In this document: positions 47,228 through 63,113 of the stretch, piece after piece
How the letters are laid out: the number at the start of each line of letters is the position of its first letter
Position numbering within the stretch: the stretch's first letter is position 1
Program-made: the position numbers and the translations under genes
Origin: an uncultured Hyphomicrobiales bacterium
GTDB lineage: Bacteria > Pseudomonadota > Alphaproteobacteria > Rhizobiales > Rhizobiaceae
Reading direction: 5' to 3'
DNA: 63,113 bases
NCBI GenBank assembly: GCA_963922635.1
Contig: CAWUJX010000001.1
Span: forward strand, 1 to 63,113
Notes under the pieces: generated by a model
What the model was told of the DNA's origin: nothing
What the model saw: the letters and a program-made list of their open reading frames with translations, nothing else
Database searches by the model: none

Positions 47228-48130
47228 CTAATAGGCGCATGTCAAACATACATCATCTTCATACAAAACATTGCCCTTACAATCGGGCGTATCACATTTA
47301 ACTCGTTTAACCGCAAAAGATTTGTCACAGATAAAGCAATATAAGTTTGTTGAAGTTGGCGATTTGGGTTTCAAAACTGCCAGACGTGTTTCAAACCCAG
47401 CGTCCCTGTTTGCAATTGAAAGACACTGCGGACAAGAATATCGTCTTTGCTTTTTATCAATATGAAAATACTTTTTCACTTTAGCGGGTTTTAGTAAGTT
47501 GATCGCGGCCTCCATCTCCCAACAAACCGTATTACGTGTAAATTCATAAGCTCCAAGATGCGCTACCGGCATTCTGTCCAAGAATTCGCTTCTATCTGTA
47601 GGCCAGTGATTTTGAGGAAATAGCTCAGAGTGCATCTCCAAAATCAACTCAACTAACTGAGATGGGCCGATTGATACATCTTGTGCAGTCGAGTGGGTTA
47701 TCTTGTTCCTCATTTTTCTTATCTCTTCAAACTTGGAACGGAATGTATCGGATAATTCCTTATTAGTGAAAGTCGAGATCATTCTTATTAGATCTTGAGC
47801 ATCTACAGATTTGAAGTCACTAAAAAGTATATTTCCTTCTGCACTAATGCCGGAGAATTTTGCTGTTGTGTCTTGTATCAATAAATATGGTGTTACTTCA
47901 GCAATATAACCCTTGAGTGATAGCTCGACACCTTGCTGCATTATCGTGGCTGCCGTGAGCAAAATTCTACGCGATGCAGACCAGTACTCATCCTCGGTCT
48001 CTTTGTCATACTCATTATAGCCATCAGAGATTGTCGTCATAAGATTTGCGACTTGATCCCAAGCCAATTGCAAATGGTCTAGGCCTACGTCCAAAAAATC
48101 TCGATGACTTGGAATATCTGATACAGCCAT
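47228..48130 (-). CDS. HEPN-like (Rx4H) protein with C-terminal multi-cysteine zinc ribbon
   Basis: FEEIRKMRNKITHS contains R-N-K-I-T-H, the Rx4-6H HEPN signature with Asn after Arg, and there is an upstream helix QQGVELSLKGYI. The C-terminus carries CPQC, CFIC, CDTPDC and CLTC. Confidence 0.6.
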   Translation of the reverse strand: MAVSDIPSHRDFLDVGLDHLQLAWDQVANLMTTISDGYNEYDKETEDEYWSASRRILLTAATIMQQGVELSLKGYIAEVTPYLLIQDTTAKFSGISAEGNILFSDFKSVDAQDLIRMISTFTNKELSDTFRSKFEEIRKMRNKITHSTAQDVSIGPSQLVELILEMHSELFPQNHWPTDRSEFLDRMPVAHLGAYEFTRNTVCWEMEAAINLLKPAKVKKYFHIDKKQRRYSCPQCLSIANRDAGFETRLAVLKPKSPTSTNLYCFICDKSFAVKRVKCDTPDCKGNVLYEDDVCLTCAY

Positions 48131-48144
48131 GATGGTACCATTGA

Positions 48145-49236
48145 TTACCTTTGATTGTCGTTGCCATCTTCTAGTAGTTTGATTGCTTCGCGCTCTTCTT
48201 GATAATCGCTGATAATCCGACGCACTCGATTAAGTTCTGCCAACGCGTCGTCATCAATTTTTACTTCTGAATTCTCTTCTTCATCATCATCAGATTTAGG
48301 TGGAGCAACAAAGTCAACGTCTCCGCCATTCTCACCAAATTTGACGAGTTTATCTATGGACTTCTCAAGAGCATTTTTAACATCCCCTCTTGCATTTTTG
48401 GGGATTTGGTCAGCCAGTTCCTTGTAAATAGCATCAAGTCCCTCCTGTCGCCGTTTGTTTTCCATCTCAGCAAGCTCGTTCTCCATTACCTCTGTGAGAA
48501 GTCTTTTCTGACGAAGTTCTTCGCGCGTAATCTGAACAGACATGACTTCTTTAGCCATACCAGTAAGATGCTTGCAGATCAGAGCTAGCAATGCAGACAC
48601 CGCCGCTGTTGCTGAAAGAACCAAAATAATCGATCCATTCGATGTGCCAATAACGCGGGTATCTTCGGGAGCCTCACCGACAAGCATCCCCAAACCACGT
48701 ACTATGTGAAACCAATCTTCAGCAGAAGTCTTCCAGTCCTTTATGTCATTAATTGCAGCCTCGTTTCTAAAACCGACACGCACCGTAATCCGATCCTCAG
48801 CAGTTTCAAACGTATCGACTTTTATTCCCATTTCACTTACAGCTGAGCTATATGCTGTTAGTTGGTTATGAACATTATTTATCTTGGTCACCGCATCCTG
48901 AATTGCATTCAAAGTAGTGGCAGGATCGTAGGTAGTTGTAATTACAGTTTCCCGTACATAATCAACGCCGTCATACCCGATTAGATTAGACACTCCTTGC
49001 TGCCCTAAGAAACGTAACTGTTGAAGGTTCAATTCGCCAACTTTCATCGCAGAAAGGAAATCTAACAATTCGTTTAGCGGTTCTTCCAGTGGCTGCGTGG
49101 CTCCCTGATTAATATTATTTTGCAACACCCTTTGGAGAGCTTGGTATTTTGCTGCCAACTGACTGTGGTTCAAATCAAACCAGTTCGATAATTCAAGAAG
49201 CTCCAACACGTTCATTTTTACGATCCAATCATACAA
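48145..49236 (-). CDS. single-pass membrane / coiled-coil protein with acidic tail, function unknown
   Basis: The ORF-track start at 49236 is TTG; the first ATG is at 49215. Central TM helix GSIILVLSATAAVSALLALICKHL, then coiled coil (ITREELRQKRLLTEVMENELAEMENKRRQEG) and the acidic stretch SDDDEEENSE. Confidence 0.6.
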   Translation of the reverse strand: MYDWIVKMNVLELLELSNWFDLNHSQLAAKYQALQRVLQNNINQGATQPLEEPLNELLDFLSAMKVGELNLQQLRFLGQQGVSNLIGYDGVDYVRETVITTTYDPATTLNAIQDAVTKINNVHNQLTAYSSAVSEMGIKVDTFETAEDRITVRVGFRNEAAINDIKDWKTSAEDWFHIVRGLGMLVGEAPEDTRVIGTSNGSIILVLSATAAVSALLALICKHLTGMAKEVMSVQITREELRQKRLLTEVMENELAEMENKRRQEGLDAIYKELADQIPKNARGDVKNALEKSIDKLVKFGENGGDVDFVAPPKSDDDEEENSEVKIDDDALAELNRVRRIISDYQEEREAIKLLEDGNDNQR

Positions 49237-49242
49237 TCACTA

Positions 49243-49276
49243 CTACACACACAGTATGTGTACGCCGTGTGTGTAG
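49243..49276. repeat. 10-bp perfect inverted repeat CTACACACAC-N14-GTGTGTGTAG in a divergent promoter region
   Basis: Read directly from the sequence. It begins 7 nt upstream of the TTG 49236 start, or 28 nt from ATG 49215. Confidence 0.7.
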
Positions 49277-49494
49277 CCGTTCCATCGTATTGCGGTTCAT
49301 GTAACTCTAAAGTCAGACAACGGTACCCACGACTCCATACTATATTCCTTGTCCTATGAATTAAGAACAAGAAATATTGAATTCCCCAATATGCCCAATG
49401 CTCTTCCTAATCGAATGCTTACACAGTCGATATCAAACAATGTTTTGACATCTATTCGTATTTTTCATTCTATTACTTCATCCATTTTATTTTT

Positions 49495-49884
49495 GTGTGG
49501 GAGGAAACATTGAGAGTAGAAATCAAACACAGCGAACAATCAAAAGGGATGATTAGCAAAACCACGTTCTTTCGAACGGACTTCAATTTCATTTTCTCGG
49601 AAGAAGAAAAAGGGATCATCGCTGAAGCTGATCTGGGTCCATATACATTTCTGGAACGCGAGCCACCTTTTGACAGCAAAGACTATGGTGAACCCGACAA
49701 AGCCTATGAATATGAAGTGACGCTCCGAAAGTTGCTCAATGATGGCGGGTTTCATCATGCCTCGCCAAGCCGCCGACAAGCATGGGATTTCACCAGAAAC
49801 GTCAAAGAGCAACTTCCAACCTTGAAAGCTGTCTTGGACAAATACGCAGGCATAGCACTGGAGAACGAAAGCATCGAACTCTAG
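49495..49884 (+). CDS. hypothetical protein
   Basis: 129-aa ORF with a GTG start; an alternative ATG at 49549 gives MISKTTFF. It has no recognisable motif and is the first gene of a same-strand cluster. Confidence 0.5.
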   Translation: MWEETLRVEIKHSEQSKGMISKTTFFRTDFNFIFSEEEKGIIAEADLGPYTFLEREPPFDSKDYGEPDKAYEYEVTLRKLLNDGGFHHASPSRRQAWDFTRNVKEQLPTLKAVLDKYAGIALENESIEL

Positions 49885-49895
49885 GCAGCGGCTAG

Positions 49896-51965
49896 ATGGA
49901 AAACCTCTTCTTCATTGTACTGCTGGCGGTCGTTTGCGTCTTCGTTCTGTTTCGTCTTTTTCCTTCGCTGGGCAAAACTCGAAAAGAGAAAATAGAAGAT
50001 GAGTTCGTTGAACGCACTCATGCGCTCTACAAACAGGCCTGCCAAATTGATGCCTTTGATACCGATGCTTTCATAAAGATTGCCAATGCAACCTTTGAAG
50101 ATGGCAAAGTGAGAGCGGCGGCTCTGGAGTTATTTGCAAGAGAAGAAGTCGCCAAACCTGATCCACCACCGGAGATCGTGACTGGCATAGAAGGCGGGAG
50201 GTATCGCGACTATCTCGAACGCTACATCAACCAAGGTCAGGATGATGAACGAAACAATGTCTTAGTTGGTTCGCTCTGTCATGTATTGGAACCGCTCGAC
50301 CGTATTTGGGATGATGATGGTATCTTCAATGCCAGACAACGCATAACCCGTGAAGAGGTTGTGACTCTGATGGCTCGTACTTTTGAAGTCGAGCCACGCT
50401 TTGAAAGCACAAGGCAACAATTACTTGCGAATCTCATGGAGAATGGTGGGAAGAATGCGCTTCAATATCGGGACGATGATTATCCATACGCTTATCTGAA
50501 AAATACCCCACTTGAGAAACTCGAATACCGTGCCACGATGGTTCCTTGGAATAATCGGGAAGCTCATACATTGGTCCTTGGCGGTTCTGGCTCCGGCAAG
50601 ACCACCCTGTTCAAACATCTGATTGCCAAGCTTCTGGAAGAAGACTGTTGTGTGGTGGTGATGGATAGCCAGAGCCAGGTCATCGAAGAACTGGCTCATC
50701 TCAAGCTGAATGAAAGCGATGTTACATGGCTTTCACCTGAAAACGCCCTGGCACTCAATCCGTTTGATATCGATCCGAAAGACCAAAGAGATGAGACTGT
50801 CATCAATAACAAGATTTCGCTTTTGGAGTTCGTCGTTGAAAACCTGATCGAAGCACCCATGACACCGCGCCAGAAGAACCTCTTCTACTTCTGCACCCAG
50901 TTGGTACTGGCGATACCGGGCGGGAACGTGAAGACGTTCAAGGAAGTTCTGAAAGACCCGTTTGTCTATTCTGACACGATAGAAACACTGGATGAAACCG
51001 CACGGGATTTCTTCTTCAAGGAACTGAAAGAGCAAAGTGGTAATCGCAAAGGCAACAGCTACGACAGCACCCGACAGGAGCTGGCCTATCGTCTGGATGG
51101 TTTAACCAAACAACCTACGTTTCGCCGGATATTTCAGACGAAGGAAAACACCTTTGATTTCTTCGATGAAATGCAAAAGCGAAAACTCATTCTTTTGGAT
51201 ACCAGTCAATCACTGCTCGCTGATGATAGTCCAACCCTTGGCCGCTTCTTGATCGCCAATGCACTGCAAGCCTGTTTTCAACGGGTACACAAGAAGCAGA
51301 TGGATCGTCCAGTCTATTTCTTTGTTGATGAAGCACATGAGTATTTTGATGAGAAACTGGAGCGGATGCTGCTGCAAGCGCGCAAAGCAAATGTAGGCAT
51401 GGTGCTGGCCACACAGGATTTAAGTCGGGCCACTAAAGCAGGGATTGCCGATACCCTGATTGGGTCAACCTCTACTCAGATTGTAAGCAAGGTAATTGCA
51501 GGTGATGCCAAGCGGTTGGCACCTGCCATGAAAACCAATGCCGAGTTTATAACCGATCTATCTGATCACACTTTTGGATATTTCAGTGGGCAAGATATCG
51601 TATCAATCCAAGTGAACGGCGACCCGCTTTCGCAAGTTGCTAAACGTGGCGATCTTAATTCGCTGAAGCGCAGTATAGAATTTCGATATGGCCCAAAACC
51701 GGAAATGCCAACGTTTGATCCTAAGCCAAATGCAGATACGGAAAGCGTAAATTCAGAACCGACTGTTGAGGACACCTCTACGTCTTCCGAACAAAACCGA
51801 GCTGAGGAAAACAAGCCGCCTGTTGCAAAGCAAAAGCCAGACAAACCAATCCAGCAAAAACCTCAGAAATCGCAGCCGAAACCAAAAGCGCATAATAAGC
51901 CAAAGCAAAAACCACCTATGATCCAAAATGAGGTTCAAGACATCGAACCGGGTGACCAGTTATAA
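49896..51965 (+). CDS. membrane-anchored P-loop ATPase, FtsK/TraD(T4CP)/HerA-like
   Basis: N-terminal TM helix (LFFIVLLAVVCVFVLFRLF), Walker A LVLGGSGSGKTT, Walker B YFFVDEAHEYF and ARKANVGMVLATQDLSR. The roughly 90-aa C-terminal tail is P/K/Q-rich and low complexity. Confidence 0.75.
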   Translation: MENLFFIVLLAVVCVFVLFRLFPSLGKTRKEKIEDEFVERTHALYKQACQIDAFDTDAFIKIANATFEDGKVRAAALELFAREEVAKPDPPPEIVTGIEGGRYRDYLERYINQGQDDERNNVLVGSLCHVLEPLDRIWDDDGIFNARQRITREEVVTLMARTFEVEPRFESTRQQLLANLMENGGKNALQYRDDDYPYAYLKNTPLEKLEYRATMVPWNNREAHTLVLGGSGSGKTTLFKHLIAKLLEEDCCVVVMDSQSQVIEELAHLKLNESDVTWLSPENALALNPFDIDPKDQRDETVINNKISLLEFVVENLIEAPMTPRQKNLFYFCTQLVLAIPGGNVKTFKEVLKDPFVYSDTIETLDETARDFFFKELKEQSGNRKGNSYDSTRQELAYRLDGLTKQPTFRRIFQTKENTFDFFDEMQKRKLILLDTSQSLLADDSPTLGRFLIANALQACFQRVHKKQMDRPVYFFVDEAHEYFDEKLERMLLQARKANVGMVLATQDLSRATKAGIADTLIGSTSTQIVSKVIAGDAKRLAPAMKTNAEFITDLSDHTFGYFSGQDIVSIQVNGDPLSQVAKRGDLNSLKRSIEFRYGPKPEMPTFDPKPNADTESVNSEPTVEDTSTSSEQNRAEENKPPVAKQKPDKPIQQKPQKSQPKPKAHNKPKQKPPMIQNEVQDIEPGDQL

Positions 51966-51973
51966 ACTGGTGA

Positions 51974-52915
51974 ATGAAGAGACAAGACCGCTTGGGTCGT
52001 CGGTTGTTCACGACACACACCGAGAATCCTATTCCAGATTACAAACCTAATGAACGGCAGCTGCAATGGATGCAATTTCTGAACCTGCATGGCTTTGCTT
52101 CATCACTCTATTTGCACGAATACACGGCAGATACTCATCGGTGTCCGCAAACCAGCAAACGGATGTTACGCAAGCTCTTTGATGGACAGATGATCTATCG
52201 TCCACGCCAGCAACGTGAAACCGAAAACGCCGATGGCAACTATCACGTTTATGCACTCACTAAAGCCGGGATTAATTATCTGAAAGAAGAGGGATTATGG
52301 TTAGAGGCGCATAAACCAACTGGTGGGTGGGTTCATCAATACATGGTTTCTTGTATCACGGCATCCATTCACATCCTCTGCAACCGTGAGGGGTATCATT
52401 ATATTCCCGGTCATGAGATTACACCGTCATTAACAGCTGAAGCACAGTTCACATGGGGCAGCAAGGAATACAGCTACAACATCATTCCAGATGCGCTCTT
52501 TGCCATTCAATATCCCACTGGATACGTCGCCTATGCGCTCGAAGCTGATCGTGGAACTGAACCAAATGACACTGCATCACCTTATCGAAAATCCATCCGC
52601 CGCAACATCAAGCAATATGCATACTTGGTTGGCAATCAAGCATACAAATCTGCGTACCGTCTGAATTGTCCTTTGATCGTTCTCAACGTGATGGTGTCTA
52701 AGCGCAAAGTGGAAAATGCTTTGACCATCATCCAAAAGGAAGTAGGTGACTGCCCTTATTTGGCATTTGGATTGGCACCAGAATTCAAAACACCTTTTAA
52801 ACCCCCAGCCAAATTATTGGAAAGTCTCTTTATTGAACCCTTGCATCGCTCAGGATTAAAGCCTTGGACGATTAAGCAAGTCCAAAAGAAAAGTTGGTTT
52901 CGTTACAAAAAGTGA
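51974..52915 (+). CDS. replication-relaxation family-like protein (wHTH + PD-(D/E)xK-like core)
   Basis: IIPDALFAIQYP....YALEADRGTE matches my recollection of the pDa...lEvDrgTe core of Replic_Relax proteins. The assignment is from memory, not a search. Confidence 0.5.
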   Translation: MKRQDRLGRRLFTTHTENPIPDYKPNERQLQWMQFLNLHGFASSLYLHEYTADTHRCPQTSKRMLRKLFDGQMIYRPRQQRETENADGNYHVYALTKAGINYLKEEGLWLEAHKPTGGWVHQYMVSCITASIHILCNREGYHYIPGHEITPSLTAEAQFTWGSKEYSYNIIPDALFAIQYPTGYVAYALEADRGTEPNDTASPYRKSIRRNIKQYAYLVGNQAYKSAYRLNCPLIVLNVMVSKRKVENALTIIQKEVGDCPYLAFGLAPEFKTPFKPPAKLLESLFIEPLHRSGLKPWTIKQVQKKSWFRYKK

Positions 52916-53033
52916 ACTTGGCTCATACCACCACAAATCATGGCACGTCCCGCTAATAGTTCTTCATAGCAAACGGTGACGAACCTATATTTTGCTGCTG
53001 TCATCTTCTCGTCAAAACACAAGGAGAAACGAC

Positions 53034-53240
53034 ATGACAAAAGGCAAACAACCCCTACGAAATTGGCTCGGAAGAAAAGCCTTCGGTGCTGCAAAAGCGG
53101 TTGGTGGACTAACCGTTCAGATTGTCGATGAGACGCTCTATGCAGGTCTCAACAGCATTCCCGGCAACGATCCGCTGAAATCAAACACAGAAATGGCTCG
53201 TGAACTTGATGAGTACAAACGCTTGACTGGGAGAAAATGA
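53034..53240 (+). CDS. small hypothetical protein (68 aa)
   Basis: AAGGAG RBS 7 nt upstream of ATG 53034; the ORF-track start at 52992 is TTG. Confidence 0.5.
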   Translation: MTKGKQPLRNWLGRKAFGAAKAVGGLTVQIVDETLYAGLNSIPGNDPLKSNTEMARELDEYKRLTGRK

Positions 53241-53241
53241 G

Positions 53242-53424
53242 ATGTCTTCAAGACGCACTACTCCCAAGCGTGACTTTTCCGCCACTCATGTGACCCGCAC
53301 CAAACGCGGAAAAACTCGATACTATCAGAAGAGTTCTCTTCGCAGGAAAATCAAGAAAGGTTTGAAAAGGCAAGGATACTCCAAAAGGGTTCGAAGACAT
53401 GCAACCAAATCTGGTTGGGCATGA
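53242..53424 (+). CDS. very basic small protein (60 aa, R/K-rich)
   Basis: ATG lies 1 nt after the previous stop. About one third of residues are Arg or Lys (RRKIKKGLKRQGYSKRVRRH). A strong terminator follows. Confidence 0.45.
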   Translation: MSSRRTTPKRDFSATHVTRTKRGKTRYYQKSSLRRKIKKGLKRQGYSKRVRRHATKSGWA

Positions 53425-53429
53425 TACAA

Positions 53430-53453
53430 GGGCGGGGAAATCCCGCCCTTTTT
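53430..53453 (+). terminator. rho-independent terminator ending the 49495-53424 cluster
   Basis: GGGCGGG-GAAAT-CCCGCCC followed by TTTTT. Confidence 0.85.
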
Positions 53454-53577
53454 AGCAAGAAAAACAACCTACTAAATTCAAATATCTCAGAATACAAAAA
53501 ATATTATAAATAGCAGTTGATAAATGTCATAATATTTATACATATTATTATGTCTATTAAAATTTACGGAGAGTGCT

Positions 53578-54108
53578 ATGAAGGTGACAATTGATATTGC
53601 CGGGTTCTTTTTTGAACGTGAAGTAGAAATTAGCGAGGGCGCAACTGTTCGAGAAGTAATGGAGAAAGCTGTATCCGAAAACGGAGCAAATGATTCAAAG
53701 TTGTTCTTTGATACCGAAGGTCTGTTTGTTGATGGCATTTACGTTGTGCACTCAAACGGTTCAGCTGAATCTCGACAAAATCGTTCCCGTATTTATGATG
53801 ATGGCGCGTATGGTTTCATTGATGATCCAGTCAATTTCGAAAATGGGAAATTTGTTCCGGCTGATAATAGTTCCGGTTATGATGGCGCAGTGGTGGCGTG
53901 GCAATATTACATATATGACGACAAGTCGGTCGACTTGAACAGGGCCAATGGAACTGATCGAAAGGTGGTCTCCTTCACCAACTCTGACAGTGAATACCCA
54001 TTGAAAGATGGATATACTATCGTTTGGCGAGCAATCCTTTTGCAGCTAAAGCCAAATGGTGTTGTGAAAATGAAATCTGGACGGCCAATGTTGCCGGAAA
54101 TGAGTTAG
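53578..54108 (+). CDS. hypothetical protein, possible beta-grasp/DUF4430-like
   Basis: GGAGAG RBS and an AT-rich promoter region. MKVTIDIAG...EVEISEGATVREVMEKA plus a late W.YY...PLKDGYTIVW pattern recalls DUF4430-type domains. This is weak. Confidence 0.5.
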   Translation: MKVTIDIAGFFFEREVEISEGATVREVMEKAVSENGANDSKLFFDTEGLFVDGIYVVHSNGSAESRQNRSRIYDDGAYGFIDDPVNFENGKFVPADNSSGYDGAVVAWQYYIYDDKSVDLNRANGTDRKVVSFTNSDSEYPLKDGYTIVWRAILLQLKPNGVVKMKSGRPMLPEMS

Positions 54109-54115
54109 CGAATAC

Positions 54116-54148
54116 GCGGCCATTGATGGCTTTACCATCAAGGGCCGC
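54116..54148. terminator. long hairpin between convergent genes
   Basis: GCGGCC-A-TTGATGG / CCATCAA-G-GGCCGC, 13 bp paired with one mismatch and a 5-nt loop. Confidence 0.6.
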
Positions 54149-54178
54149 TCACCAAATATAATTTTTAAGAACTGCCAA

Positions 54179-54583
54179 CTATCTCACTCTGACTTTGCCT
54201 GAGAAACTGCCACTATTTCCTGTATCACGAACGCACTTTCCTTTAGCGGTTCCAGACTTGAAGCTCCCATCCTTACTGAATTTGAGCGTGACCGTAACCG
54301 TCGATTTCTGATTGCAACCCTCTCTTCCGCCAATGCCAGCTGTTGAGAAATTTGCTGTTCCAAAGATCTTAGTCTTTGATGCACCCTTGGTTTGGGTGGA
54401 ACCAATGACCGTGGTTCGCCCACTACTTCTAAGTGTGATCTTGTCACCTGAAACGGAAGCAGCAATTGGCCAAGGGAACTTGGTTTGAACTTGGAGATTG
54501 TAGCTGCCGTTTGGTGCTGCGACTAAGGGTGCAGGCACCGAGTACAATGCAAACGCGAGTACTCCGATAAGTGCTTTTTTCAT
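54179..54583 (-). CDS. small secreted protein, function unknown
   Basis: ATG 54583 gives the signal peptide MKKALIGVLAFALYSVPAPLVAA. The mature part is G/S/T/K-rich and looks beta-rich. Confidence 0.6.
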   Translation of the reverse strand: MKKALIGVLAFALYSVPAPLVAAPNGSYNLQVQTKFPWPIAASVSGDKITLRSSGRTTVIGSTQTKGASKTKIFGTANFSTAGIGGREGCNQKSTVTVTLKFSKDGSFKSGTAKGKCVRDTGNSGSFSGKVRVR

Positions 54584-54587
54584 TTGC

Positions 54588-54950
54588 CTACCTCCATAAT
54601 GTCGTGCCTCCGAAACGGAACTTATCGCCTCGTGCTCGGATGGTGCCGCAACGCCATGGAATGCCGCGCCAGTCTCCCGCAGGAGCGAAAAATGTACACA
54701 TACGATCACCTTCTATGCGCCATTCACCCTTGCCGGATTGTCCGACCTTACTGCGCCAACGCAAGGTTCCGTTGTTGGCATAAATGACTTTGCCAATTCG
54801 ATTGCCGCGAAGACGATAATTTAAATTCTTGCCAATAATCTGCTGTTTGATTTCAGTGCCAGTAAGCTGTTGGGCATTTACACCCGAGGTTGCAAGCGGC
54901 GCCGCAACCAATAGAGTTGAGGCAAACGTAAGAGAATATTTCAAGGGCAT
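54588..54950 (-). CDS. small secreted protein, DUF995-like
   Basis: AAAGGAA RBS 5 nt before ATG 54950. Signal peptide MPLKYSLTFASTLLVAAPLATSGVNA. The pattern LTGTEIKQQIIGKNL...GEWRIEGDRMC resembles DUF995 proteins of Hyphomicrobiales (from memory). Confidence 0.6.
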   Translation of the reverse strand: MPLKYSLTFASTLLVAAPLATSGVNAQQLTGTEIKQQIIGKNLNYRLRGNRIGKVIYANNGTLRWRSKVGQSGKGEWRIEGDRMCTFFAPAGDWRGIPWRCGTIRARGDKFRFGGTTLWR

Positions 54951-54998
54951 GATGTTCCTTTCCAACCGGAATAGCCGGCTCTTTTGTCACCATCAAAG

Positions 54999-55023
54999 TG
55001 AACAAAATGGCCAATTCTGTTCA
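54999..55023. repeat. left copy of a 25-bp inverted repeat (TGAACAAAATGGCCAATTCTGTTCA)
   Basis: 24 of 25 positions match the reverse complement of 55142-55166, including an 18-bp perfect core AATGGCCAATTCTGTTCA (55006-55023). Confidence 0.9.
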
Positions 55024-55141
55024 AGGAAGGAAAACCCTTGAATCTGCAATGTATTTACGTTGATTTACCCTACTGAGAGGTATACCCTTAGACTTTAGGA
55101 ATAGCAGAAAAAGCGCTATTTCAATAACTTATATGATAGAC

Positions 55142-55166
55142 TGAACAGAATTGGCCATTATGTTCA
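55142..55166. repeat. right copy of the 25-bp inverted repeat (TGAACAGAATTGGCCATTATGTTCA), overlapping the recombinase start
   Basis: See the left copy. The 118 bp between the copies (55024-55141) are non-coding. Confidence 0.9.
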
Positions 55167-55756
55167 GTCCAAAAATCAAACCATTCAAAAACCCCGGCTT
55201 CAGCCTCTACACCAAAGATGGTCAGCCGAAATATCTCAACCAATCGGAACGACAACGGTTCATAGAGTGTGCTGATCAATGTGAACGGTCTATTCGTTTG
55301 TTATGCCTCACATTGCTATTTAGCGGCTGCCGGTTATCAGAAGCCCTGAACCTCACGAAAGAGAGTGTTCTTACACCAGAGCAAGCCTTATCAATACGAT
55401 CCCTCAAGAAACGGAAAGCAGTAAGCTTCCGCCAAATACCAATACCCAAAAATCTAGTTCATGAATTATCAAGCCTTGGCCAAGAACGACCAAGCAGCCT
55501 GTTTGTATGGAAACGAACCCGAGCACTGCACTACGTGAAAATAGTAATGCGCATGGCGGATATAAATGGAGTTCGAGGAACAGCCCGTGGCTTACGCCAC
55601 ACATTTGGAGCGCATGGTATCCATTGCGGTATTCCAGTTACTCTACTTCAACGTTGGTATGGGCATTCCAAACTAGAAATGACAGCGATCTACACACAAA
55701 TCCTAGGGCCAGAAGAACGAGAGATTGCTAAGAAGATGTGGGAAACAAATCGATGA
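55160..55756 (+). CDS. small tyrosine recombinase (catalytic domain only, FimB/FimE-size)
   Basis: About 198 aa. Catalytic R (SGCRLSEALNL), RHTFGAH, WYGH and Y (AIYTQ). ATG 55160; the ORF-track TTG is at 55151. Confidence 0.8.
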   Translation: MFSPKIKPFKNPGFSLYTKDGQPKYLNQSERQRFIECADQCERSIRLLCLTLLFSGCRLSEALNLTKESVLTPEQALSIRSLKKRKAVSFRQIPIPKNLVHELSSLGQERPSSLFVWKRTRALHYVKIVMRMADINGVRGTARGLRHTFGAHGIHCGIPVTLLQRWYGHSKLEMTAIYTQILGPEEREIAKKMWETNR

Positions 55757-55905
55757 CGTTCAGCAAAAAACTGCCAAATAAGTATTACCAAGTTGGGCGA
55801 GACCACTCTCTGGACTTGGTTAAACCCTGCGAGCCAAGCCTCTGTGTGTTCTTCCTGCTAGACGCATACTGTATCAGTTGCTTCAACTGAAGAGCAAAAC
55901 TGAAT

Positions 55906-56682
55906 TCAACCAAAACACTGATCATCAGCAATTTGCTGCTTAATCATGTGTTGAATATCAGCTTCTAAATCAGCCTTATATTCAAGCAATAATTTCGCAC
56001 CAAGCTTGCATCGTATTTCTTTAGCGCCGCTGTCTGCTTGATTTTCCATAGCATCCGCATATTGGTTCACGATGCTTTCAAAATCAGTGCTTGTTGAGGT
56101 CAGTTCTTGTTCCATCGGTTCTTTAATGATTTTCGGCGCTTCGTCAGAAGGGATTGGCTCACTATAAGCCAGTTCATTTGTATCGGAAGGTTGATTGTAT
56201 ACTGCGTAGAGATTGGCTGGTTGTGGCTCAGAAGTGAAGCAAAACAAATGTGATGGATTTCCATCCATAAAACACTGATCAGGCCCGATAGAAATGTATT
56301 CGGTAGGTTTGCCGTTAAGTGTCGCAGGATATCTCCCGGCATATTGCACCTTGGTGGTTCCTCCAGTCGGCCATTTGAAATTCATGACGCAGTTCTCCGA
56401 GATCATACAATCGTTTGTGGTTGTACACTTCTTTTGAACCGCCAATTTTTCGTTACGCCAGACTTGGCAGAATCCGTACTGCAACGATTGTTTTATCGCT
56501 TGCTTACGCTCTCGCTCTGCCTTTTTCCGATCAATACTATTGCGAACACCATCAATGATGTCGCCTTGGAATTCGTTGAGCAATCCACGAAAGAAATCGC
56601 GAGCCTCATTGGCTGATCCGACAGAAGGCATGCCTGCGCCAACTAAGCACAATCCAAGTAATAAGCTGAGTAGCCTTCTCAT
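55906..56682 (-). CDS. secreted Cys-rich protein, function unknown
   Basis: ATG 56682 gives the signal peptide MRRLLSLLLGLCLVGAGMPSVGSA. There are about 10 Cys and an acidic C-terminal third. Confidence 0.55.
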   Translation of the reverse strand: MRRLLSLLLGLCLVGAGMPSVGSANEARDFFRGLLNEFQGDIIDGVRNSIDRKKAERERKQAIKQSLQYGFCQVWRNEKLAVQKKCTTTNDCMISENCVMNFKWPTGGTTKVQYAGRYPATLNGKPTEYISIGPDQCFMDGNPSHLFCFTSEPQPANLYAVYNQPSDTNELAYSEPIPSDEAPKIIKEPMEQELTSTSTDFESIVNQYADAMENQADSGAKEIRCKLGAKLLLEYKADLEADIQHMIKQQIADDQCFG

Positions 56683-56770
56683 TAACCCCTCCCCTGTGTA
56701 GACTATATCTAAGCACTGGAAACCAATGAACTCAACTGTTGAGGTGTCCAGTCCGCGATGGGAGGTGAAA

Positions 56771-59185
56771 ATGGTCCGCGTAAAAACTCTTTGTCTGCTG
56801 CTCCTCTCCATAATTGTCGCGAGTATGTTAACGCACTCTGCTAGTGCGTTCGGCCTTACTATCCATAAACCGTCAATCCTGAAGAGCGTCGATTGCGCTG
56901 AAATCGGCTGTGTTCACCAAGTTCTTACGGAAGCTGAACGGCAACGAAAACTTAAGGCCGTTCAACGTGAGATACAAAGACGACAGCGTGCCGCTGAGCG
57001 CGAATTACGAAAGAGACAGCAAGCGCAGAGAGATGCTGAACGTCGTAAGCAACAAGCAATTGCTCGACAGCAGGAACGCGAACGTCAGAGACGGATTCAA
57101 GAAGTTCAACGTGAGATCGAAAGACGCGAACAGCAGCAGGCAAAGGCAGCCGAGCGGGACCGCCAGCGAAAGCTAAGCGTAGTACGAAAAGAATTAGCTA
57201 AGCGCCAGCAGCAAGAAAAAGAGCGTCAGCTAAGAGCCGCTGAACGTGAATTGGCGAAACGCCGCCAACAAGAAGCGGAACGACAACGACAGGCTCAACA
57301 GCGAATTGAGCAACTGAACCAAAGAGAACGTGAAAAGTTACTCAGGGATGCTCAGCGCGAGATCGCTAAGCGCCAGCAACAGGAAAAGGAACGTCAACTT
57401 CGAGCGGCGGAACGTGAGCTAGCGAAGCGTCATCAGCAAGAAGCAGAACGTCAGAGGCAAGCGCAAAAACGAATTGAACAATTAAATCAGAAACAGCGTG
57501 AAAGGCTTCTAAGAGACGCACAACGCGAGCTAGCCAAACGACAACAGCAAGAGCAAAAAAGACAGGCTCAACAGCGAATTGAGCAACTGAGCCAAAGAGA
57601 ACGTGAAGAGTTGCTCAGGGATGCTCAGCGCGAAATCGCCAAACGACAGAGAGGTGCTCATAAGCCAAATAACGATGCAAGTAATAAAACACAACGACAA
57701 TTGCGCGAGCTACAAGAGAAAGAACGCTTGCGTAAACTAAGCGCTGCGCGGAAAGAGCTGGCAAAAAGGCAACGTGATCTTGAAGCCGCAAAACGCGCTC
57801 AACAAACCGACAAAAACATTGCGGGATCCAGAAAGAGACTTGAGCAACTAGCCCGTCAGGCCCAACAAGAGCTAGCAAATGGCCAGAACGCTAAAGCGCA
57901 TGAAACGTTAAGAAAAGCCAAGCGGGAAAAGCAACGCATCATTGATCTCAGAAACCGAAACCGGGAACTAGAGCATCAACAAAGGCTTATTCAGCAGGCT
58001 CTGCAGCAACAAGACCAGACAAAGAACAGGCAACAGACTGTCAATCGATTGCGCTCAGCCAATCAGAAGTTTCGTGAGCAGAGCAGAAACGCACAAATTG
58101 CTGAAGCCCAACGGGAACTAGAAAACTCAAACAAAAGTGTCCGCAAATATGCAACCGCATACATCAACGCTACACGTTCAGGCGACAAAGAAGCCGCAAA
58201 AGCAGCTCACGCAAAATACTTGGAAGCCAAAAACCGCAAGGACGCCCTTGAGCAGCTAAATAGGACGTTACAGTCAGGTAAGAAAATTAGACCGATAGCC
58301 GACCCAGACACCCAAGTAGCTAAGGTTCCTAACTCGGAGAACAGCGGCGGACAAACTGGCCAAAGTCTCAGGATCTTGAACCAACCTACCACATCCAACG
58401 AAAAACGGCGAACTACCTCGTCAAACTCGCCGAGTAGTATTTGGAGACCAGTACCCGGAAAACAGGGAGTGGAGTACATTGTAGACCCAACCGATGGAAA
58501 AGTGATCTATCGAGCAAACGAGTTCGCGTCCCGAAAAGATAAAGCGCTAATCCAACTAAGAAATCTAGCACCCGGATATGTCGAGCTTTCGAATGATATG
58601 GCGGAACGGGGCAAAGGGGTATCAAAGAGTGCAGCACACGGTTTGGCGACTCTTGGAAATCAAGTTCAACGCGGAGCTCAATCGCTTTATGATCCCAATG
58701 CCGCTGCTAAAGCAGAACAACGACAGCAGACAATTGATCAGTACCTAAAGCCGAGCGGCAAGCTTCAAGAGCAAGGTGAGGTTCTTGGTTATGCTCTACC
58801 GGCAGGTGGTGCAGCAAAAGGAGCATCCGCGCTTACCAGGCTGAGGCAATTTATTAAACCAAGCGCAAGAAGTATTGCAGCTAGGACCATTAATCTGAAC
58901 CCACGGCAGATTCAGAAAAAATACAACGATCACGCTTTTCAGTTTGGTATCCACGGAAATTACAACAGCGGAAATGCACAGAAATTTGCTTCTGCAATCG
59001 CAAAGCATGTAAAGTCACAGTCAACTAGGGAAATCGCGGGCACATTTAGGAAACAACCTGTGATACACTACATCAATCCGACAACCGGGTTAAATGTAAT
59101 GACTGACCGATCAGGCAATTACATCTCTGGATGGCAACTTAGTCCATCGCAAGTTGAAAATGTCGTTAAGCGCGGTTCCCTGTAG
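56771..59185 (+). CDS. Sec-signal protein with long R/Q/E coiled-coil repeats and a C-terminal toxin-like domain
   Basis: GGAGG RBS before ATG 56771. Signal peptide MVRVKTLCLLLLSIIVASMLTHSASA. About 450 aa are RELAKRQQQE-type coiled coil. The last roughly 110 aa (QKKYNDHAFQFGIHGNY...VIHYINPTTGLNVMTDRSGNYISGWQLS) resemble the KHxxxFG...G-rich pattern of colicin-D-type/polymorphic toxin C-terminal domains (memory-based). Confidence 0.6.
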   Translation: MVRVKTLCLLLLSIIVASMLTHSASAFGLTIHKPSILKSVDCAEIGCVHQVLTEAERQRKLKAVQREIQRRQRAAERELRKRQQAQRDAERRKQQAIARQQERERQRRIQEVQREIERREQQQAKAAERDRQRKLSVVRKELAKRQQQEKERQLRAAERELAKRRQQEAERQRQAQQRIEQLNQREREKLLRDAQREIAKRQQQEKERQLRAAERELAKRHQQEAERQRQAQKRIEQLNQKQRERLLRDAQRELAKRQQQEQKRQAQQRIEQLSQREREELLRDAQREIAKRQRGAHKPNNDASNKTQRQLRELQEKERLRKLSAARKELAKRQRDLEAAKRAQQTDKNIAGSRKRLEQLARQAQQELANGQNAKAHETLRKAKREKQRIIDLRNRNRELEHQQRLIQQALQQQDQTKNRQQTVNRLRSANQKFREQSRNAQIAEAQRELENSNKSVRKYATAYINATRSGDKEAAKAAHAKYLEAKNRKDALEQLNRTLQSGKKIRPIADPDTQVAKVPNSENSGGQTGQSLRILNQPTTSNEKRRTTSSNSPSSIWRPVPGKQGVEYIVDPTDGKVIYRANEFASRKDKALIQLRNLAPGYVELSNDMAERGKGVSKSAAHGLATLGNQVQRGAQSLYDPNAAAKAEQRQQTIDQYLKPSGKLQEQGEVLGYALPAGGAAKGASALTRLRQFIKPSARSIAARTINLNPRQIQKKYNDHAFQFGIHGNYNSGNAQKFASAIAKHVKSQSTREIAGTFRKQPVIHYINPTTGLNVMTDRSGNYISGWQLSPSQVENVVKRGSL
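57197..57637 (+). repeat. 168-bp (56-aa) in-frame tandem repeat: two full units plus a 105-bp third unit
   Basis: Units start at 57197, 57365 and 57533. The third unit is nearly identical at DNA level to the 3' part of the first (CAGGCTCAACAGCGAATTGAGCAACTGA...GGGATGCTCAGCGCGA). Confidence 0.85.
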
Positions 59186-59188
59186 AGT

Positions 59189-59443
59189 ATGAAATTACGT
59201 TCTCAAAATGATGATTTTTGCCTCAGATTAAACAAAAGTGAGGCGCTTGTATTGTTTGATTGGATAGCTGAATTAACCCAATCAAAAAGAGACACTGCAT
59301 TTTTTCATACCGCTGAATACAAGTTGCTTTGCACAATTGAAAACTGTTTAGAAAAAGAGCTGGCTGAGCCAATACTTGAGGAATATGGCAGCTTGCTTTT
59401 TAGTGCGAAGCAAGATGTCCTCAACTCTGACCCAAGTAACTAA
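59189..59443 (+). CDS. small acidic protein, candidate immunity protein
   Basis: 84 aa. ATG lies 3 nt after the toxin-like gene stop. It is acidic and predicted helical, with no signal peptide. Confidence 0.5.
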   Translation: MKLRSQNDDFCLRLNKSEALVLFDWIAELTQSKRDTAFFHTAEYKLLCTIENCLEKELAEPILEEYGSLLFSAKQDVLNSDPSN

Positions 59444-59475
59444 TGTCACATTTTTGATCTAGGTCGTATCAATCT

Positions 59476-60636
59476 TCAAGTTAATGTACAGGCCGAAAAC
59501 GGCTTGGTTTGTACATCATCAATCATCATTTTCACAAACATCTGGTAGTTGGGCAAGTTCACAAGATCACGTGAAGTTGGAACATCTGCGCCGAATTGCT
59601 TTGCCAAAATCGGCGCATCAGCTGCACCTATGCGAAATGAAATCAGTGTTCCTACATTTCCCCAAATAGCTTGCATGACATCAGGGGCAATCGCTGCTGT
59701 ATGTTGTGCTGTCATACACAGATACAGACCATACTTCCGTAGCTCTGCCAGCATATCTGCGAATGATGAACTGGTGAAAGAGGAAAACTCATCAACTATC
59801 AAACTATAAGCTCGTCGCTGTTTAAGCGGAAGATTTTCTCTGCTCATAGCGGCAGCTGACATACTGGACACCACCAAACCACCCAGCACATTGCTGATGT
59901 CTGCGCCCAGTTTTCCTTTGGCAAGATTGATAATAAGTGTCTGACCTTCATCCATCATTTTACGAAACCGTAGAGGCTTTTCTGGATTGCAGATTTTCTT
60001 TCGCACTACTGGATTGGAAAGAAACGAATTGAGCTTGTTGCTAACAGGACTTACGCCGTCAGCGGCTGTGGTGAATTTCAGCTTCTCAAATTCCAGCTTC
60101 CAGAAAGATTTTACATAGTCATCCGCAACATACTGCAAGGCTTTTTGACGAAAGGTTTTATCAAGGAATAAGGGCATGACATCCTGCATGGATGAGTTTG
60201 GGCGAGCTAGTAGTGTTAGGAAAGCCGCCCGCATAAGGCTCTCCATACGCGGACCCCAAGCATCGCTCCAAAGCTTCTTCAGCGTATCAATCAAACCGGA
60301 CGCAACAAGCGACCGATGCTCTTCACTGACATAGGTGAGCGGATTGTAACCATACGGACAATTGGGATTGGCCGGCTCCCAGAAAACGCAATCGTCACCC
60401 GAAATTTGTTGAACTGACTTTGCTAAATCACCATGCGGATCAAGAAGACAAAACCCTCTACCATTCTGGAGGTCTTGTTTCATCAATTGAAGCAGCCAAG
60501 TCGATTTACCCGTCCCGGTTTGGCCAAAACAGGCCATGTGGAACTGGCGATCTTTATATCTGATACCGAATGGTTTCACTGGTGGTCGCCCGTGGGTTTG
60601 GCCAAGTTTAGTAATCACCCCATTGATATGCTTCAT
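59476..60636 (-). CDS. soluble P-loop ATPase, TraD(T4CP)/HerA-DUF87-like
   Basis: Walker A CFGQTGTGKST, LLDPHGD, Walker B SLIVDEFSSF and ELRKYGLYLCMTAQH. The start overlaps the serine recombinase stop by 4 nt. Confidence 0.7.
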   Translation of the reverse strand: MKHINGVITKLGQTHGRPPVKPFGIRYKDRQFHMACFGQTGTGKSTWLLQLMKQDLQNGRGFCLLDPHGDLAKSVQQISGDDCVFWEPANPNCPYGYNPLTYVSEEHRSLVASGLIDTLKKLWSDAWGPRMESLMRAAFLTLLARPNSSMQDVMPLFLDKTFRQKALQYVADDYVKSFWKLEFEKLKFTTAADGVSPVSNKLNSFLSNPVVRKKICNPEKPLRFRKMMDEGQTLIINLAKGKLGADISNVLGGLVVSSMSAAAMSRENLPLKQRRAYSLIVDEFSSFTSSSFADMLAELRKYGLYLCMTAQHTAAIAPDVMQAIWGNVGTLISFRIGAADAPILAKQFGADVPTSRDLVNLPNYQMFVKMMIDDVQTKPFSACTLT

Positions 60637-62228
60637 AAGTGCAAGGGATTACTCTCAGACACACCTTCCTTTGTTGAACGCGTCAATCTCGGCTCATCCA
60701 ATCCCAACTGCTCAAGTCGCTCGATTTCTGGCGACGTGGCAAGTTGCGCAAGCAGATTGACCTGATCATCGATACTGGCAGAAGTTCGAGAACTTGCACG
60801 AGCATCTGCACACCTAAGGATGGCCATTGAATCCTGAGCCGCCTGAAGCCAATTTGATGGCTCAACAAAAATGTTTTTGGCCGACACGCTTCGGTTCGAG
60901 GTCGCCAATTCAACGATTTCTCGTTTTTCCTCTGAATTCCCGTTTTGGTAGTATTCTGCAAGGTTTTTCAGACGTTCGAGAAACTGGCGTATGTAACTTG
61001 GACTTAGCTGATCTTGGGCAATTTTCTTCAGCGATCCTTCCAGCTCTGATCGTTCCAGAAGCAATGCATTTTTGCGCTTTAGAAAGCTCTCACGGTCAAT
61101 GATCTGATCAATCACAGCGTCTTCCAGTTTCTCCAATCGTTCTGCAAGTTTGGATATTTGAAGCTTGATAGAGGCAATCGTTTTCTCAACGGAACGGTTA
61201 TTTGTAAGCGCAGCGACCTTCTTTTCAATCAGCGCAATCACATAATCAGGCAATTTGATTGCTTTGAGGATGCTGTGGATGGCACTGTCCAATTCTTCCT
61301 CGCGAATGCTGTTTCCGGCACATTCAGGAAAGTGACAACGGTAATAACAATGCCCCTTCTGGAGTTCAGGGATCATGGATCGACCACACTGTTTGCAGGC
61401 AAATAGGCCACGGAATAAATGATTGTGCCGGGTGAACTTCTTGCTCTTGCGGTCAGAACGCAAAGCCTGAACACGCTCAAATGTGGCCGTGCTAATCAAC
61501 GGCTCATGCGCACCTTTGTAAGTTTCACCTGTAGTCTTGATACGAATAATGCCTGCGTAAAACGGGTTACCAAGAAACGCTTCAAAGCACCCGCGTGAAC
61601 GGGGTCTTCCATTGGGCTGTTTGAAACCGCGCTTTGCCATTTCCACCCGCAAAGTCTCAAACGAATATTGCCCACTGGCGTACAACTCGAATGATCGTTT
61701 AATGAGTGGGCCAATGACTGGATCAATCGTTTTCAGTTGCTTCTTGCCGTTGTTCAAATAGCCGATTGGAGCGGAGAATGGATAATAGCCACGTTCTAAT
61801 TGCCCACGCTGCCCTTTATGAATTTCTGCCTTTAAGTTGCGAACGTAGTCCTCAGCCACAGCCATTTGAATATTGGCGGTCAGACGACCACCGCGAGACT
61901 GAAAGTCCAGACTCTCAGTAGCAAAGTGAATTTCTACGCCACTGTCGGCTAGTTCACCAACCTTCGCCCAGTCAAAGAAGTTTCGTGCAGAACGGTCGAT
62001 CTTGTGCATGACCACACCATCTGCCTTGCCGGATTTGAGGGCTTTGGTGAGTTCAGCAAACACCGGACGACCCTTCTTGGCTGCCGTTTGTGTTTCCTCA
62101 AACCACTTGCTGATTTTAATGTTGTTTCGCTCAGCGAAGTTACTGATTTCATCTTTCTGAGCATCCAGCGAGATACCCTCGCCCTGCTTTTGGGTGGACA
62201 CCCGCACATAGCCAAAACACTGCTTCAT
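60633..62228 (-). CDS. large serine recombinase
   Basis: Resolvase N-domain CFGYVRVSTQKQ with catalytic Ser, then a recombinase domain, a zinc ribbon (CKQCGRSM...CYYRCHFPEC) and a long coiled-coil C-terminal part. 531 aa. Confidence 0.9.
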   Translation of the reverse strand: MKQCFGYVRVSTQKQGEGISLDAQKDEISNFAERNNIKISKWFEETQTAAKKGRPVFAELTKALKSGKADGVVMHKIDRSARNFFDWAKVGELADSGVEIHFATESLDFQSRGGRLTANIQMAVAEDYVRNLKAEIHKGQRGQLERGYYPFSAPIGYLNNGKKQLKTIDPVIGPLIKRSFELYASGQYSFETLRVEMAKRGFKQPNGRPRSRGCFEAFLGNPFYAGIIRIKTTGETYKGAHEPLISTATFERVQALRSDRKSKKFTRHNHLFRGLFACKQCGRSMIPELQKGHCYYRCHFPECAGNSIREEELDSAIHSILKAIKLPDYVIALIEKKVAALTNNRSVEKTIASIKLQISKLAERLEKLEDAVIDQIIDRESFLKRKNALLLERSELEGSLKKIAQDQLSPSYIRQFLERLKNLAEYYQNGNSEEKREIVELATSNRSVSAKNIFVEPSNWLQAAQDSMAILRCADARASSRTSASIDDQVNLLAQLATSPEIERLEQLGLDEPRLTRSTKEGVSESNPLHL

Positions 62229-62389
62229 ACTTTTTTGGAATTATCTTCCGACTCTATCACATCCTGAAAATCTAGCGAATCTTTCCATGGCCAAGTTCCC
62301 TCAGCCACCATGCGCTCATAAGCTCGTTGGCATAGAGCCAGGTACCGCTCCACTTCGGGCGGTAGTTGTTGATTGTGTTGTTTTGACAT
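62225..62389 (-). CDS. small ORF (54 aa) translationally coupled to the serine recombinase
   Basis: It is below the 60-aa track cutoff, so I translated it by hand: MSKQHNQQLPPEVERYLALCQRAYERMVAEGTWPWKDSLDFQDVIESEDNSKKV. Its TGA overlaps the recombinase ATG (ATGA). Confidence 0.4.
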   Translation of the reverse strand: MSKQHNQQLPPEVERYLALCQRAYERMVAEGTWPWKDSLDFQDVIESEDNSKKV

Positions 62390-62413
62390 GCAGAAAGTCT
62401 AGCTGCTGAGCCA

Positions 62414-62474
62414 GGTTACAACAGACCCCAGTTATACCGTTATCCCGGTTTTGCTGGGGTCTGGTTGTAATACC
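62414..62474. repeat. long imperfect hairpin (10-bp perfect core CAGACCCCAG / CTGGGGTCTG, extended by TTACAA/TTGTAA)
   Basis: Read directly from the sequence. It lies 25-85 nt upstream of the small-ORF start on the minus strand. Confidence 0.7.
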
Positions 62475-62523
62475 TGAAAACGATAGTCTGTCCGGGCGAT
62501 AGGGAAAGAATGGAGTAAGTATT

Positions 62524-62598
62524 GCACTACCACGCGGTTGGTCTTGCTTGGAGGGGTGTTAACCCCTCCATGGAGATTTCCAGACCGCGTGGTAGTGC
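62524..62598. repeat. nested inverted repeats: outer 15-bp perfect GCACTACCACGCGGT / ACCGCGTGGTAGTGC enclosing GGAGGGGT-GTTA-ACCCCTCC
   Basis: Read directly from the sequence. It lies in the 313-bp divergent region between the recombinase operon and the XRE gene. Confidence 0.8.
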
Positions 62599-62702
62599 CA
62601 ACCATGTTCTTTACATCAATTTGATTAGCCGCTCGCTAGGCTTTGTTTGTCTCCCTGTCGCTGTGACAAACAACGCTTAGCGGGAATAATCATTCAAATA
62701 CT

Positions 62703-63056: not shown

Positions 63057-63113
63057 AACGCTGTCTATTGCAGCTGGAACGGGACGCATTGGATATGTGT
63101 ATCTGGAAGACAA
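63043..63113 (+). CDS. 5' end of an unidentified ORF overlapping the XRE gene stop (runs off window)
   Basis: ATG 63043 is open to the window end: MAGYRTLSIAAGTGRIGYVYLED.... There are only 23 codons, so the call is weak. Confidence 0.25.
   Translation, partial: MAGYRTLSIAAGTGRIGYVYLED

Follow-up and report, generated by a model that had tools for sequence, protein, structure and literature searches.

We analysed a 63,113-nucleotide stretch of DNA from an uncultured Hyphomicrobiales bacterium (contig CAWUJX010000001.1, positions 1 to 63,113; hereafter the window), in which two inverted 25-bp sites enclose a short segment directly upstream of the gene for a small tyrosine recombinase. On balance, we lean towards reading this locus as a self-contained site-specific inversion module, the payload of which would be the recombinase's own promoter and which would strongly prefer one of its two states. 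Comparison of homologous loci establishes, at the level of sequence, how the sites are built, that their centres covary, and where and on which strand the promoter lies. The features of the locus are as follows (positions are those of the window).

54968-54990, no strand: degenerate third copy of the site, GGAATAGCCGGCTCTTTTGTCAC (GGAACAGCnGGCCATTTTGTCAC in relatives), 8 bp outside the left site
54999-55023: left site (L), with outer arm ACAAAAT (55002-55008), centre GGCCA (55009-55013), and inner arm ATTCTGT (55014-55020), extended by TGA/TCA flanks
55024-55141, no strand: segment between the sites, 118 bp, non-coding, candidate invertible segment
55060-55088, forward strand: sigma-70-like promoter, TTGATT (55060-55065), 17 nt, TACCCT (55083-55088), facing the recombinase gene
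55119-55131, forward strand: motif resembling the integration host factor (IHF) consensus, TTTCAATAACTTA (compare WATCAANNNNTTR), a lead only
55142-55166: right site (R), with inner arm ACAGAAT (55145-55151), centre TGGCC (55152-55156), and outer arm ATTATGT (55157-55163)
55160-55756, forward strand: tyrosine recombinase, 198 amino acids (aa), catalytic domain only, with Arg-58, Lys-83, Arg-146, His-169, and Tyr-178 and a C-terminal EEREIAxxMW helix

A repeat finder returned the two 25-nt arms at 54999-55023 (TGAACAAAATGGCCAATTCTGTTCA) and 55142-55166 (TGAACAGAATTGGCCATTATGTTCA) as a 24/25 inverted match with 118 nt between them. By our own count they match at 20/25 positions in direct orientation, and in the inverted register their first 18 nt agree without exception. 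A search of the 63 kb for the pattern TGAACA-N11-15-TGTTCA found the two arms alone (frame N13), where 0.04 matches were expected, and this pair is the single case in the whole window of inverted repeats of at least 22/25 within 300 bp, with none in 5 shuffles. The repeat search, the pattern count, and the shuffles together place the pair far beyond chance. An origin by chance, as a cruciform, or as a generic repeat was considered and rejected on the grounds of conservation across species and of an identity that peaks at the centre rather than along the arms. A preliminary description of this DNA had given the same repeat length, match counts, 18-bp perfect core, and spacing, with a right copy abutting or overlapping the recombinase start and a non-coding, AT-rich segment between the copies. 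These claims stand: the repeat search and our count agree, the ATG at 55160 lies inside 55142-55166, and the inner 118 bp have a guanine plus cytosine (G+C) content of 35.6% compared with 48.9% for the window, with no open reading frame (ORF) of note in the ORF list. Rfam disclosed no match to a known RNA in the inner segment. A relaxed full-site search of the window found no third copy of the site; the degenerate copy outside L is kept in the alignment of most of ten close relatives and may be either an accessory binding site or a relic.

Each of the two sites is a dyad, with palindromic arms of 7-10 bp around a 5-bp centre, and the R centre TGGCC is the reverse complement of the L centre GGCCA. 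In core sites of tyrosine recombinases of the Cre/loxP and FLP/FRT type, the asymmetric centre sets the polarity, and two opposed centres lead to inversion. Judged by their sequence, L and R have the anatomy of tyrosine-recombinase crossover sites placed in inverted orientation.

To compare this layout across the family, we assembled 160 loci from species-representative genomes and metagenomes, with further loci for the closest proteins and for one homologue of the neighbouring genes, giving about 170 in total. Two sites of the ACAGAAT-N5-ATTCTGT type, 102-160 bp apart, were present in 87 of these homologous loci, from many Alphaproteobacteria and from metagenomes, with the pair ending 0-120 bp before the recombinase start codon. 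Isolates with a two-site module include Methylorubrum rhodesianum DSM 5687, M. zatmanii LMG 6087, Afipia clevelandensis ATCC 49720, and Methylobacterium sp. Leaf123. Site pairs were then picked on arm score alone (n = 64), and their centres were compared against 2000 permutations across loci. Exact (5/5) reverse-complementary centres were found in 62/64 pairs, whereas the permutation maximum was 13; no pair had a 5/5 direct centre match, the second site always being inverted. About 30 different centre sequences occur across the family, so that two dyad sites with identical crossover bases, as expected of a pair of recombination sites, recur on many different centres. Across the ten closest relatives the arms do not vary, while GGCCA changes to GACCA in two loci (L165 and L176) and to AGCCA in a third (L167), each time in both sites. 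When L is compared with reverse-complemented R, identity is complete at the centre and falls to 0.5-0.64 at the variable outer-arm positions. An identity that peaks at the centre, with arms less alike, is not that of a general homogenisation of the repeat. The covariation indicates that selection has kept L and R able to exchange strands together, and this is the main argument against reading them as operators only. It argues that L recombines with R, which would invert the segment. No third partner site was found within ±5 kb of any locus (756 kb scanned) or in the 63-kb window; L and R are therefore each other's only nearby partners.

The recombinase start codon, ATG at 55160-55162 (Met-Phe-Ser), lies inside R, and we take it as the start because the homologues all begin with M-F-S or similar. 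The sole Pfam domain is Phage_integrase (PF00589, residues 28-183), with 57 bits against a cut-off of 27. Arg-58, Lys-83, Arg-146, His-169, and Tyr-178 are invariant in 28 aligned family sequences, and the 198-aa protein thus combines the catalytic domain and the residues that define the tyrosine recombinase superfamily. At residues 143-147 (window 55586-55600) all 28 members read [R/K]-G-L-R-H, with Arg or Lys in place of the His of the HxxR box. The homologues are 38-84% identical and nearly all about 190-200 aa long; they form 481 clusters at 50% identity (E ≤ 1e-30) and occupy at least 455 loci in species-representative genomes. An AlphaFold model (mean predicted local distance difference test score, pLDDT, 88) has a single, confidently predicted catalytic domain, a long C-terminal helix, and disordered residues 1-11, and it lies nearest to the catalytic domains of XerA and XerH (template modelling score 0.7). 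The best matches in NCBIfam and the PDB are likewise catalytic domains of the Xer type, every one of which, the XerC and XerD models included, falls far short of its curated cut-off; no curated family claims the protein. The preliminary description had put it in the size class of FimB/FimE-type invertases. The size class is right, as the protein has about 200 aa, one catalytic domain, and a short N-terminal extension, but by sequence it is no member of that family: the FimB and FimE models score 19.6 bits (PRK09870, cut-off 221) and 18.9 bits (PRK09871, cut-off 222).

The segment carries a predicted, conserved sigma-70-like promoter that faces the recombinase in the observed state. We base this assignment on the position and strand conserved across the family, the window's own match being weak. 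Anchored on L, the trinucleotide TTG has a sharp peak 27-32 nt into the segment. The strict pattern TTGnnn-(16-18)-TAnnnT at a fixed offset from L is present on the recombinase-facing strand in 36 of 82 unique loci and on the opposite strand in 3, and a weighted promoter score is higher in the forward than in the reverse direction in 68 loci, compared with 12 in which the reverse is higher. The transcript, whose start is predicted near 55095-55100 on the forward strand, must cross R, which folds as RNA into a hairpin of about 9 bp enclosing the AUG; no Shine-Dalgarno sequence is evident at the recombinase start. Close relatives share TTTCAA-N4-TTA 11-23 nt before R, with the positions specified by IHF kept and the N4 varying, and the IHF-like motif has a modest enrichment elsewhere in the family; it is possibly a DNA-bending site.

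Two further observations concern transcription of the recombinase in other loci. In a Hyphomicrobiales group (L010, L016, L085, L090, L094, and similar loci), the transcribed part of the segment contains, within its last ~30 nt, a short G+C-rich hairpin with T's after it, such as GCCC-N7-GGGGCTTT, and in the leader after R a second G+C hairpin stands just before the ribosome-binding site. These hairpins are possible attenuators of recombinase expression. At a Methylorubrum locus (L053), a contig from an RNA-type run begins with a template-switch oligo tail at position 4540, about 200 nt left of L, and spans both sites and most of the recombinase gene, which hints at read-through transcription from upstream.

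Immediately left of L, in divergent orientation, lies a two-gene operon that is the candidate cargo of the switch.

54588-54950, reverse strand: operon gene 1, small secreted protein of 120 aa, unknown family, candidate switched cargo
54179-54583, reverse strand: operon gene 2, small secreted protein of 134 aa, unknown family, with 71% identity to gene 3 of locus L161

Both N-termini are signal-peptide-like, and the first start codon (54950) is 48 bp from L, which agrees with the two-gene operon for secreted proteins that the preliminary description had placed there (54950 down to 54179, beginning 35-50 bp from the left repeat). Neither protein has a Pfam or NCBIfam match, and a word-indexed protein search for cargo homologues returned one. 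Inspected by eye, neither the window's 48-bp gap nor the corresponding gaps of its relatives contain a promoter-like sequence. All close relatives carry one to three small secreted-protein genes on the opposite strand, starting 13-53 bp from L; these belong to at least four families that are shuffled between loci. The first ~10 signal-peptide residues (M-x-L-K-Y-x-L-T-F-A; window 54921-54950, and L161, L162, and L164) nevertheless stay with the switch across differing mature families, as when gene 1 of L162 is compared with window gene 2, which has a different mature family. This suggests an exchange of cargo downstream of a fixed leader. Using a crude call from ORFs and third-position G+C in 75 loci, we found the left neighbour divergent in 61; many left genes across the family look secreted or outer-membrane-like, and in one sub-family an XRE regulator is found there. 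The window's pair of cargo genes is also present, at 86% identity, in another element (L175, 1750-3015) without switch or recombinase, preceded there by an unrelated inverted repeat, GAACACAGG...(~70 nt)...CCTGTGTTC.

Inversion, the genes that it would switch, and the strong preference for one state are inferred, and we combine them in a model whose recombination steps are based on the anatomy of the sites. Dimers of the 198-aa recombinase would bind the dyad sites L and R and then synapse them, possibly aided by an IHF-type bend in the 118-bp segment. Strand exchange across the identical, opposed central base pairs would then leave the segment inverted. In the observed state, the locus's only evident promoter would read through R into the recombinase gene, with the cargo silent. 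Recombinase output would probably be low, owing to the weak promoter, to recombinase bound at the flanking L and R, and to the R mRNA hairpin burying the AUG. In the flipped state, the promoter would read through L into the secreted-protein operon, with a leader of ~115 nt in the window, and recombinase synthesis would stop, giving a rare, heritable cargo-ON state.

Several results weigh against this model. The window promoter is weak, matching the E. coli consensus at 7/12 positions, and a strict consensus scan of the window for promoters and terminators returned nothing, the promoter match itself failing it. There was no inverted copy among the 82 unique loci, apart from one uncertain candidate; in all 78 pairs of loci with alignable inner segments, the two segments point the same way with respect to the recombinase gene, with 0 reversed, and the ten close relatives all match the window. 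We also queried sequencing runs, at the level of contigs, with the window and with loci of Methylorubrum (L053), Afipia (L038), and Methylobacterium (L035). Logan contigs from 16 runs on three of these loci, the window included, contained no strand-change joints, although such contigs, like consensus assemblies, drop minor variants and cannot show minority orientations; for the Methylorubrum locus, 20 runs contain every sampled word of the reference orientation. The locus has the inverted repeats, the promoter segment, and the adjacent recombinase gene of an inverton; the presence of both orientations in a population or among isolates was not observed in these assemblies and contigs. If recombinase synthesis is confined to the observed state, simple kinetics predict a build-up of flipped cells, which is not seen. 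Finally, the left neighbour is co-directional in 14/75 loci, so control of cargo cannot be universal.

The uncertain candidate is a Micavibrio metagenome-assembled genome (MAG; L032, 2590-2740), in which the sole promoter of canonical geometry, TTGCGG-17-TATTTT, lies 30 nt from a site and faces away from the recombinase, the only such case among the loci. It is possibly a naturally flipped copy; no relative close enough to confirm the flip was found, and a leave-one-out profile of inner segments gave too weak a signal to orient divergent loci. Contig breaks near R in two metagenomes were considered as inversion joints and rejected, their geometry not being that of an inversion. Ten Logan contigs from different runs that carry one identical homologue also have identical upstream sequence, and this locus is a single-site variant. 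For comparison, we scored the junction between fimE and fimS in 4714 complete genomes of E. coli: the K-12 orientation accounts for 94.4% of them, and the opposite one for at most 5.6%. With 0-1 of 82 loci flipped, the bias here equals or exceeds that of a proven, directionally biased switch, and switching is not refuted. The flipped state may fail to accumulate as a result of very low enzyme output, a fitness cost, back-flipping through read-through or paralogous enzymes, or the need for an inducing condition. With regard to the phase-varying invertible promoter proposed in the preliminary description, the conserved promoter and the usually divergent left neighbour (61 versus 14) speak for it, while no inverted copy has been seen; of its two suggested targets, the recombinase is the one that the promoter faces in the observed state and in all assemblies, and the secreted-protein genes are not faced in that state.

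Distant homologues (33-40% identity) occur on small plasmids, for example in Shewanella, Komagataeibacter, and Octadecabacter, beside par, rep, and toxin-antitoxin genes. They have one dyad site of the same design 80-100 bp upstream of the gene (~400 bp in Komagataeibacter, where the site is ACACTAT-GGGTA-ATAGTGT):

L171 2380-2410, L173 2067-2091, and L174 2374-2410: plasmid single dyad sites (13-5-13 or 7-5-7), upstream of the gene

At least 12 chromosomal or metagenomic loci likewise have one perfect 9-5-9 site, and both sites are present on a plasmid of Methylobacterium radiotolerans. The recombinase gene of acetic-acid bacteria and Octadecabacter has a small WGR-domain gene as its partner. 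The single-site homologues support the view that the elements are true crossover sites of the family and that the inverted second site is derived; the two-site form looks as though it arose by adding an inverted second site across the promoter.

In the window, the module lies in a region of lowered G+C that begins at ~44 kb (44000-63113, 0.42-0.48 versus about 0.50) and that includes the following genes.

44311-45345: integrase, low-G+C island
49896-51965 and 59476-60636: two coupling-protein-like ATPases, low-G+C island
51974-52915: Replic_Relax gene, low-G+C island
56726-59185, forward strand: colicin D-domain protein, 819 aa, with a C-terminal colicin D domain (Pfam, 2.9e-19)
60633-62228: large serine recombinase, low-G+C island

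The gene content and low G+C place the module in a mobile island, and the same gene set also flanks the switch in L165, L169, L176, and L177; the island looks like a member of an integrative mobilisable element family. The colicin D protein has a long, highly charged, repetitive middle part rich in Gln, Arg, Glu, and Lys, and is directly followed by an 84-aa ORF (59189-59443, forward strand) that could encode its immunity protein. Elsewhere, two-site modules occur on megabase chromosomal contigs, with 2-3 copies in some genomes that share the same arms. In one MAG, a 1.5-kb unit of an XRE-type gene, the two-site switch, and the recombinase is present in 2-3 copies that are 90% identical and have sharp homology borders (L025, 4188-5686, and L029, 4190-5686, on one contig, and L016), as if the whole module had been duplicated or were mobile there.

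Three other explanations of the locus were weighed. One, already named in the preliminary description and in our view unlikely, holds that L and R are autoregulatory operators only, at which the recombinase or another dimeric protein would repress the promoter between them by looping L to R, the real substrate, if any, lying elsewhere. It fits with L and R flanking the enzyme's own promoter, with R overlapping the start codon, and with the single orientation ever seen; recombinase genes of known systems also often adjoin sites that double as operators. Operators, however, need no identical opposed centres, and yet 62/64 pairs keep them, with compensatory changes. The invariant catalytic residues also speak against it, and so does the absence of any other site for the enzyme within ±5 kb of any locus or in the 63-kb window. 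The operator proposal thus cannot explain the covariation of the centres, although autoregulatory binding at the same sites is likely as well.

It is also quite improbable that the sites serve the resolution or maintenance of an element, whether by multimer resolution or by exchange between molecules through L × L or R × R, the second site being accessory as in multi-part res sites. For these functions one site per copy suffices and no matching of L to R is needed; a second inverted site would only add inversions, and the second site is always inverted, never direct. The plasmid homologues beside par, rep, and toxin-antitoxin genes do have a single site, and the window module shares its low-G+C island of integrase, ATPases, and Replic_Relax with the syntenic loci L165, L169, L176, and L177, and both points speak for such a role; against it, modules sit on megabase chromosomal contigs in 2-3 copies per genome, where dimer resolution is not needed. 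We give a similarly low probability to a working switch that does not control its neighbours, in which inversion would only shut off the recombinase, or in which the module would be a selfish or duplicative unit with passenger genes. The wide variation of the left genes (small secreted, outer-membrane-like, XRE regulators), the 14/75 co-directional neighbours, the occurrence of the cargo pair (86% identical) elsewhere without the switch, and the sharply bordered duplication of the 1.5-kb unit in one genome are all in line with it. These points are countered by the excess of divergent neighbours (61 versus 14), by a gap to the first cargo gene that is very short and promoter-less throughout the close relatives, and by a shared signal-peptide start that remains tied to the switch although the mature parts change.

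Returning to the inversion module that we favour, there is ample documentation of invertible promoters for gut Bacteroidota, Firmicutes, and enterobacteria, and to our knowledge hardly any for Alphaproteobacteria. A survey found inversion signatures in 0/4 alphaproteobacterial samples (PMC5903667). Our literature searches found no description of this recombinase-promoter module. The family is probably undescribed and, pending proof of inversion, otherwise of the tyrosine-recombinase invertible-promoter kind. We further propose, tentatively and as something that falls short of probable, a widespread, undescribed alphaproteobacterial switch in which a minimal recombinase has captured its own promoter, so that a flip would silence the enzyme and turn on the cargo, leaving it in a rare ON state that is heritable and locks itself, in contrast to phase variation that reverses freely; such a switch would derive from single-site plasmid resolution, and its cargo would consist of regulators or of secreted or outer-membrane proteins. 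Should the module flip, it would amount to a compact, portable switch of a 198-aa enzyme and two ~25-bp sites with an unusual logic, the enzyme's own promoter being the payload, and it would imply that environmental and plant-associated bacteria express secreted and surface proteins with a heterogeneity that has stayed hidden. The ~30 natural centre variants on near-identical arms would provide ready-made candidates for orthogonal site pairs.

Comparison with known systems places the module between classes. As in FimB/FimE-fimS of E. coli and MrpI of Proteus mirabilis, the enzyme is a ~200-aa tyrosine recombinase without a separate N-terminal DNA-binding domain, and as in fimS, inverted repeats enclose a short promoter segment beside the recombinase gene, with a strong orientation bias in assemblies and possibly an IHF-type bend. 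In contrast, there is no family-level sequence relation to FimB/FimE; full 19-25-bp dyads with a 5-bp centre replace the 9-bp repeats with flanking half-sites of fimS; the segment is 118 bp rather than 314 bp; and one recombinase takes the place of a pair. Here the segment's promoter serves the recombinase itself in the common state; fimB and fimE have their promoters outside fimS. The invertons of Mycoplasma penetrans mpl and of the Bacteroides Tsr/Mpi type are alike in that promoter segments of ~135-200 bp are flipped by tyrosine recombinases, switching surface or secreted proteins, and in that the recombinase gene often adjoins its switch. They differ in their recombinase clade and repeats, in that both orientations are readily found, and in that the promoter is not that of the recombinase.

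The sites themselves, with palindromic arms and a short asymmetric centre just upstream of the recombinase gene, resemble those of Cre-loxP (P1), XerS-difSL, and XerH-difH, and the catalytic domain is closest to XerA and XerH in both sequence and fold. The single-site layout of these systems is found exactly in the distant plasmid relatives of the family. Cre and Xer systems, however, use one site per replicon, with deletion or resolution between copies, while the matched inverted site of the module would lead to inversion within the molecule. The system falls outside the Xer/dif type: each module has two sites, some genomes contain several modules, the enzyme has no N-terminal core-binding domain such as Cre and Xer proteins have, and the XerC and XerD models stay far below their cut-offs. 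A last likeness is to TnpI of Tn4430, where an internal resolution site of ~116 bp lies directly upstream of the recombinase gene, contains four binding motifs, and overlaps the control region. In Tn4430 the crossover core is one inverted pair and the other two motifs are direct accessory repeats, whereas the two elements of the module both have the form of complete dyad sites with identical centres.

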